64,000 bases of DNA from Chlamydiota bacterium (GTDB taxonomy: Bacteria; Chlamydiota; Chlamydiia; Chlamydiales; SM23-39). The notes under the pieces are model-generated. The model saw only the letters and a program-made list of their open reading frames with translations, was not told the DNA's origin and made no database searches. The translations under genes and the position numbers were made by a program. How positions within the stretch are numbered: position 1 is the first letter of the stretch; each line of letters starts with the position of its first letter. Positions 34,572-35,519 of this stretch are shown in pieces. Location of the stretch: the NCBI GenBank assembly GCA_031423235.1, contig JANPFC010000054.1, positions 13,691 to 77,690 of the forward strand, given 5' to 3'.

Positions 34572-34607
34572 GTTAGGAATGAAGGAAAACTCATGTTTAA
34601 ACTTCCC

Positions 34608-35519
34608 TCACTTTTTAGAGATCTCTTTGCTTCGATCGGTGGACTCGTACTGATAGCCAGCAGTTAGCCCTGTGTTTGTTTTTGCTGCATGAACAGCAAG
34701 GTAAGGGACTCCTGTGGAGGTCCGATTGATTTCGCCCTTGTTATTCCAGTATTTGCCGCAAGACCCCTTTCGGGTTTTATCAAGAACATGAAAACTGTTT
34801 TTATAAGCACCTGTATCGATGGTTAAGGAGGCATAGACGTGCTTTTCCAAAGGATCCAAACTTTGGATGAGTATTTGATTGTCCAAATAGGTGTATTTTA
34901 TCACCTTGCCGTTCGGGAGAACCTCTTTTACTAAATTATAAAAAATCCGCTCATGGTGATTGTAAAATCTCCTAGTGCCATTGGGCAGAAGGACGGTAAT
35001 AGAGAAGATTTCTTCGCTGATACTAATATTTCTCGGATCGAATTTCCCTGATGGGACATCCCCTGAAATATTGCTCATGCCTGATGTATGGATCAGTTTT
35101 CCCTTCGAAAAAGAATAGATGGCTCCATTGCTATCGGGAACTTTAATTTCACTTCCCTTCCGCTCCAGTTTTAGATGGGGAAGAAAGACCCATCCCCTAT
35201 GATTTTTCTGGAGAGCCATTAAAAAGGATCTTTCGTTGTAGTACTCTTGCATTTCAGAATTCACTCTCGGAGGAAGAGCAACAACAGGTGGAATGTAGAC
35301 GCGGAATAAACTTAGCTCTTGAGCTCCCCTTGCAACTAGGTCGACAGAACTTAAACAAAGCTGGCCTGAGGCAGGATTGACGCAGCCTCCGATCAAAAGG
35401 CCAGGATCGTAGTTTAAGGATGCGATTTGATCGGGACTTGAGGGAATGAGGCCGATTTCTTCATCTGCCGCAAGAGAGAATAGAAAGAAAAGAAATGCTG
35501 TGAAAATGGATTTGCGCAT
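34608..35519 (-). CDS. N-terminal part of the same Rhs reading frame (signal peptide plus Rhs N-terminal region), cut off by one in-frame TGA
   Basis: MRKSIFTAFLFFLFSLAA signal. VNPASGQLCLSSVDLVARG resembles the start of Rhs/YD proteins. Same frame as 30492..34571. Confidence 0.7.
   Translation of the reverse strand: MRKSIFTAFLFFLFSLAADEEIGLIPSSPDQIASLNYDPGLLIGGCVNPASGQLCLSSVDLVARGAQELSLFRVYIPPVVALPPRVNSEMQEYYNERSFLMALQKNHRGWVFLPHLKLERKGSEIKVPDSNGAIYSFSKGKLIHTSGMSNISGDVPSGKFDPRNISISEEIFSITVLLPNGTRRFYNHHERIFYNLVKEVLPNGKVIKYTYLDNQILIQSLDPLEKHVYASLTIDTGAYKNSFHVLDKTRKGSCGKYWNNKGEINRTSTGVPYLAVHAAKTNTGLTAGYQYESTDRSKEISKK

Follow-up and report, generated by a model that had tools for sequence, protein, structure and literature searches.

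A gene for an Rhs/YD-repeat protein on the minus strand of a chlamydial contig is interrupted by a single in-frame TGA at codon 304, where its closest relatives encode a conserved cysteine. The gene lies in a 64,000-nucleotide stretch of a Chlamydiota bacterium assembly (GCA_031423235.1, contig JANPFC010000054.1, positions 13,691 to 77,690). We call this whole stretch the window and use its own numbering. The gene encodes a predicted polymorphic toxin with a putative Sec-type signal in an environmental chlamydia, and is followed by a conserved immunity-type gene. We consider it probable that the stop is a real and very recent TGY-to-TGA nonsense change and that the gene is a nascent pseudogene whose immunity-type gene is still intact.

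Translation of the minus strand from the ATG at 35519 to the TAA at 30492 gives 1,676 codons with one internal stop, the TGA, in addition to the terminal TAA. The minus-strand letters at the junction read GAG ATC TCT AAA AAG TGA GGG AAG TTT AAA CAT GAG TTT TCC TTC ATT CCT AAC TTG AAA ACA. The TGA is flanked by stop-free stretches of 316 and 1,371 codons. Nowhere else in the six frames of the window does a single TGA separate two stop-free stretches that each reach 90 codons, so the split frame is more than a chance arrangement. The list of open reading frames (ORFs) places the 303-residue ORF with an ATG start (34608..35519) and the 1,359-residue ORF with a TTG start (30492..34571) in the same frame. 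Homology to single-ORF Rhs proteins runs unbroken through the stop position. An earlier note on this DNA had proposed that one Rhs frame, holding both ORFs, is broken by a single TGA, and the ORF list, the translation and the homology across the stop all bear this out. The 303-residue fragment is also present as a separate NCBI-sourced protein (P0058), which means that the TGA is present in that deposited sequence.

Relatives carry this region as one uninterrupted gene. We examined 41 chlamydial-type loci from a species-representative genome collection, all of them from Chlamydiota-type metagenome-assembled genomes, some labelled Verrucomicrobia. The junction lies within an uninterrupted frame at 34 of these loci (25 complete single ORFs of 1,512-1,859 residues and nine that are open to the contig end), and the column of the window's stop falls inside an ORF at every locus that has the region. 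The earlier note had raised the prospect that relatives exist as two independent genes; the outcome is the opposite. The other seven loci (L001, L002, L013, L026, L035, L038 and L041) are disrupted by a frameshift, a truncation or an internal deletion that fuses an N-terminal remnant to the toxin end. Closer intact homologues were found by profile search (P0027, P0037, P0049, P0034, P0038, P0039 and P0040). P0027 has 1,656 residues and is 89% identical to the window protein before the stop and 78% after it, while P0037 and P0049 have 1,644 and 1,605 residues.

The stop replaces a cysteine codon, which the earlier note had not recognized. All nine members of the closest subclade, with identities of up to 89%, have Cys at the stop column within a KKCGxF motif, and all nine carry an insert of about 45 residues at the stop region. 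Where DNA is available, in four members, the codon is TGT (L047, L046) or TGC (L048, L001), so a single base, in the third codon position, sets the TGA of the window apart from the family state. Because the genes around the Rhs gene are not syntenic with those of L047, L001, L046 or L048, we call these four closest homologues rather than proven orthologues. The lineage-specific insert holds two cysteines conserved in 9/9 members, one at residue 254 (KGSCGKY, 34758-34760), which is also common in the wider family, and one at residue 304 (KKCGxF, 34608-34610). The two may form a disulfide in the exported protein.

Other irregular copies of the gene were seen among the relatives. In L001 (contig CAWHDP010000002.1, 8806-8812), the nearest relative in the genome collection, the Rhs frame shifts in a GGGGGG run about 40 codons upstream of the window-stop column. 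This looks like a long-read homopolymer error, the alternatives being a real lesion or a variable G tract. In L041 (7998-9273, Parachlamydiales SW_7) an N-terminal Rhs remnant of about 250 residues runs into an overlapping ORF of 176 residues in another frame, which has a toxin-type C-terminal region. The entire shell seems to have been lost by internal deletion, and the locus shows that this Rhs family has degenerate copies. The 50%-identical homologue P0001 on L046 ends with a TAA (5354-5356) after 420 residues, 12 nucleotides before the end of the Logan contig; the copy may be truncated, or the stop may be an artefact of the contig end.

The domain content and predicted fold place the stop inside the Rhs shell. 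The downstream piece contains RHS/YD repeats (PF05593 RHS_repeat, 6.7e-46; TIGR01643, 4.5e-28) and the Rhs-associated core (TIGR03696 Rhs_assc_core, 7.7e-23, above its cut-off), with the DPDG motif at residues 1470-1473. Rhs-core matches in the PDB comprise RhsP (8h8a), RhsA (7q97), 8qjd, Tse5, Tse15, TcdB2-TccC3 and a teneurin-like protein, and they stop at residues 1473-1476, just past this motif. The upstream piece has weak Pfam matches to RHS_repeat and DUF6531. We modelled read-through residues 1-775 only with AlphaFold2, using 44 homologues as input. The model is nearly all beta hairpins (predicted local distance difference test score 91.7, predicted template modelling score 0.87), and its Foldseek matches are 8qja, 7q97, 8qjd, Tse5, teneurins and TcB-TcC, with E-values down to about 1e-27. 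The upstream piece forms beta strands in it, preceded by a helix at residues 2-15, where MRKSIFTAFLFFLFSLAADEE shows the n-h-c pattern of a signal peptide by eye. In the model, residue 304 lies in the turn that joins strands 296-301 and 306-312, both part of a single continuous shell. The stop is thus predicted to cut a beta-hairpin turn and not a domain boundary, nor does it fall between an export module and the core, a point that goes beyond the earlier note. That note had described the upstream piece as a signal-peptide fragment with an Rhs-like N-terminal block; the piece already includes the first shell strands and a YD repeat.

The gene has not diverged further after the stop. We counted lineage-specific amino-acid changes in the window protein and in P0027 in a relative-rate test with P0037 as the outgroup. 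Before the stop there are nine window-specific and seven P0027-specific changes, and in the core after the stop there are 46 and 43 at 1,150 aligned sites (p=0.83). Neither faster evolution in this test nor a second lesion in the 1,371-codon frame is found downstream of the stop. Three possibilities follow: a very recent stop, a stop that is not real, or a downstream part on which selection still acts. Continued selection would need translation, and no signal for translation was found.

The start signals lie at the upstream end. The ATG at 35519 follows a Shine-Dalgarno (SD) sequence, GGAGAGG, with an anti-SD duplex of -6.6 kcal/mol; the mean for 26 long-ORF starts in the window, taken as likely real, is -4.0 kcal/mol. 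The duplex energy is +0.8 kcal/mol at the TTG at 34571 and +3.3 kcal/mol at the next in-frame ATG (34292), and no promoter-like site was found near the junction on the coding strand. An internal promoter or restart was rejected, as there is no SD sequence, plausible start or promoter after the stop. The downstream core therefore has neither its own start nor an export signal, as the earlier note had maintained.

Two ways of passing the stop by another reading of the frame were also rejected. Frameshifting at AAA AAG does not fit, because homology stays in frame 0 right after the stop, and stops close the -1 and +1 frames after at most 5 and 14 codons. A genome-wide reassignment of TGA does not fit either, since TGA terminates 8 of the 37 long ORFs in the window, which shows that the standard code is used, and no other TGA-split pair occurs there.

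We propose that codon 304, a conserved Cys codon (TGT or TGC), became TGA through a single substitution in its third position. Translation from the ATG at 35519 would then stop after 303 residues, leaving a stub that retains the signal peptide and breaks off at a hairpin turn in the beta shell. This truncated product is presumably non-functional. The remaining 1,371 codons, with most of the shell, the Rhs-associated core and the toxin domain, would be made only through low basal leakiness at UGA since they have no start signal, and we thus regard the gene as a nascent pseudogene. The lesion would be very recent, because the rest of the gene is undecayed and the downstream immunity-type gene is intact. 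The frequency of broken copies in the family (7/41 loci) supports a nonsense pseudogene. Several observations weigh against it. The relaxed constraint and further lesions expected of such a gene are not seen, and the intact 1,371-codon frame without acceleration is equally expected if the downstream part is translated or the stop is unreal. Cys codons account for 17 of the 696 nonsense substitutions possible in this gene (2.4%), so a random hit on a conserved Cys is mildly unexpected. Furthermore, the independent Logan assembly of SRR20217180 breaks at 35828, about 300 nucleotides upstream of the Rhs start, and the base is not confirmed there.

The earlier note had left four options unranked. 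A split gene is removed by the evidence and regulated readthrough is unsupported, so that recent nonsense pseudogenization and a sequencing error remain. We infer that the base is real in the organism. It is possible, though clearly less probable, that the TGA arose as an error in sequencing, polishing or consensus calling, or as a minority variant that became fixed during assembly, and that the organism has TGC or TGT and an intact Rhs protein of 1,675 residues. One base at one codon separates the window from its relatives, the gene is otherwise intact without excess divergence, and the source, with a parent contig of 77,977 bp on which P0058 lies, looks like a metagenome-derived assembly. 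The break in the Logan assembly just before the Rhs gene would fit strain heterogeneity, and the homopolymer-like frameshift in L001 shows that artefacts arise in such data. On the other hand, the change is a substitution outside a homopolymer, a rarer type of error than an indel, and two Logan contigs of SRR20217180 are 100% identical to the window elsewhere (9952-13466 and 35828-42502, 10.2 kb together), which indicates that the assembly is generally accurate. The protein database holds no Logan-derived protein from the first 639 Rhs residues, the part queried, and the gene may be hard to assemble in this sample owing to repeats or strain variation. Exact-product look-ups for the 303-residue fragment, the two downstream ORFs, P0027 and P0058 returned nothing, and the metagenomes of the Joint Genome Institute yielded no match to a degenerate junction pattern (TGN) or in a protein scan with close relatives. 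Full-text searching brought up no paper on SRR20217180.

The explanations in which the downstream part is functionally made are improbable even when functional readthrough, reinitiation and selenocysteine are taken jointly, and a true split gene, programmed readthrough and selenocysteine are all unsupported. Of the three stop codons, UGA leaks most. Decoding of UGA-304 by a near-cognate tRNA for Trp or Cys could in principle supply a useful low dose of full-length toxin beside the 303-residue main product, and the intact downstream frame, evolving at the rate of an intact relative, would agree with this. We nevertheless find it quite unlikely, as neither the nine close relatives nor any of some 40 others have a stop at this column, and both shifted frames soon meet stops. 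The local hairpin at the TGA is no better than that of shuffled sequence (z=-0.48) and includes the UGA itself. Since a stronger hairpin stands at the same place in L001, which has a Cys codon there, the structure follows from the encoded peptide rather than from the UGA. Rfam holds nothing relevant at the junction either: there is no selenocysteine insertion sequence (SECIS) on the coding strand, and the only match, at E=2.7, lies upstream on the opposite strand. Selenocysteine at UGA-304 is the least probable of these explanations. A TGA that aligns with a Cys conserved in 9/9 relatives, and whose flanks are conserved too, is the classical signature of bacterial selenoprotein genes with their UGA/Cys pairs, and a chance hit on a Cys codon is as rare as given above. 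Such genes also carry a SECIS hairpin, whereas no significant SECIS-like stem-loop follows the UGA here. The 64-kb window holds no selenocysteine tRNA or any other tRNA, the 89%-identical relative uses Cys, and the protein is a structural shell and not a redox enzyme. Two surveys of sequenced genomes (PMC5029168, PMC1794560) detected no SelD, a requirement for all selenium use, in Chlamydiae; selenocysteine machinery is neither seen in the window nor reported for the phylum in such surveys (PMC5029168). A genuine two-polypeptide Rhs cocoon, with its second part made by termination and reinitiation at the TTG, is very improbable as well. Rhs shells built from two polypeptides are structurally possible, as TcB/TcC of the ABC toxins demonstrate (PDB 4igl, 5kis), and the TTG lies only 36 nucleotides past the stop. 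TcB and TcC are, however, separate genes that each have their own start, whereas the second part here has no start signal at the TTG or the next ATG and no signal peptide. The break is seen in no relative and falls in a beta hairpin inside the shell.

Features of the Rhs gene and its cassette in the window (minus strand; SD, Shine-Dalgarno)
Feature	Position	Strand	Remark
Upstream fragment, 303 codons: putative Sec-type signal peptide, DUF6531-like N-terminal block, first YD-repeat strands of the Rhs shell	34611..35519	-	
Putative Sec-type signal peptide MRKSIFTAFLFFLFSLAA	about 35466-35519	-	within the upstream fragment
In-frame TGA, codon 304, in place of the subclade-conserved Cys codon	34608..34610	-	sequence and homologue alignment
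First in-frame potential start after the stop, TTG, without an SD sequence	34569..34571	-	anti-SD duplex +0.8 kcal/mol
Rest of the Rhs/YD-repeat core, to the DPDG motif of the Rhs-associated core (31101-31112)	31101..34607	-	
Predicted C-terminal polymorphic toxin domain (about 200 residues) and TAA	30492..31100	-	hydrophobic Gly/Ala-rich segment, then His-rich GHEAHDHYH region
Candidate cognate immunity gene, 134 residues	30066..30470	-	
Second small cassette gene, ORF of 160 residues	29648..30130	-	conserved part is the C-terminal 90-115 residues or so

The toxin end of the gene, compared with P0027 and P0037 over 30492-31500, evolves differently from the core. Identity to P0027 and P0037 falls to 21-29% over the last 200 residues or so, with 58 window-unique and 17 P0027-unique changes (p=2e-6), and judged by sequence this divergence is the usual swapping of Rhs toxin ends. 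The C-terminal domain has its homologues in the C-termini of chlamydial Rhs proteins and in small hypothetical proteins. No Pfam family matches the toxin domain or the small downstream ORFs even at E-values up to 10, and a GH-E/HNH-like assignment, prompted by the GHEAHDHYH motif, is thus unsupported.

The 134-residue ORF has full-length homologues of 37-51% identity. At six other loci (L004, L009, L016, L029, L030 and L034) they stand directly behind an Rhs gene with a homologous C-terminal domain, often as tandem copies, and for this reason the ORF is a candidate cognate immunity gene. In L014 tandem homologues also lie behind the Rhs gene, in which no match to the window's C-terminal domain was detected, and a further homologue is part of the cassette array of L047. 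In L047, homologues of the second ORF (29648..30130) come right behind the Rhs gene; in L001, L030 and L038 they lie downstream. This second ORF is probably an orphan immunity gene left behind by a displaced toxin end, a putative function suggested by sequence comparison. The Rhs gene of the window thus has a toxin end unlike that of its closest homologues, then its own 134-residue immunity-type gene, and then a gene with a homologue right behind the L047 Rhs gene. This arrangement (29648-30470) is what the displacement of an older toxin/immunity cassette would leave.

Several paralogous pairs occur elsewhere in the window. Two adjacent genes on the plus strand (35923-36429 and 36393-37085) are 26% identical, and both carry DUF8085 on the matching Logan contig L045; they sit divergently just upstream of the Rhs gene. 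Tandem minus-strand genes in the same frame (53113-53706 and 53722-54321) encode 80%-identical proteins of 197 and 199 residues, each with a signal- or lipoprotein-like N-terminus and no Pfam match. By their sequences they are a recent tandem duplication. A further adjacent pair of minus-strand paralogues (13984-14361 and 14361-14747) is 37% identical.

The finding itself is ordinary, and its practical value lies in correct annotation. The two ORFs are best annotated as one Rhs gene with an internal stop, to be marked as a pseudogene or corrected, rather than as a 303-residue protein beside an N-terminally truncated Rhs. The locus offers a clean case of a polymorphic-toxin gene seen at the point of inactivation or shortly after it, with its immunity-type gene intact, and adds a chlamydial Rhs subclade with an uncharacterized candidate toxin/immunity pair. 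It would become important only if UGA were shown to be decoded. We give a very small chance to decoding of UGA-304, either as selenocysteine or by efficient near-cognate Cys/Trp readthrough, at the subclade-conserved Cys of this secreted chlamydial Rhs shell. If true, Chlamydiota would have its first recoding event or selenoprotein, and the protein concerned would be a non-enzymatic container for a toxin.

Among known systems, the gene most resembles the Rhs-borne polymorphic toxins with Sec-type signals (of the type II secretion system type), which have already been catalogued for Chlamydiae (Zhang et al. 2012, PMC3482391). RHS family proteins are also among the predicted chlamydial outer-membrane proteins (PMC2811131). 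Its N-terminus resembles their signal peptide by eye. It shares with these toxins the YD-repeat beta shell and a core ending in DPxG, as well as a C-terminal toxin domain that varies, an immunity-type gene behind it and evidence of toxin-end swapping relative to its nearest homologue. It differs from them in the premature TGA at codon 304 and in that the toxin domain and immunity candidate of this copy match no Pfam family. Disrupted and degenerate Rhs copies alongside intact Rhs genes provide a second comparison, given the seven broken loci among the related chlamydial ones. In this copy a single nonsense substitution stands without further decay, so that it would represent either the earliest detectable stage of such a disruption or one that is not real.
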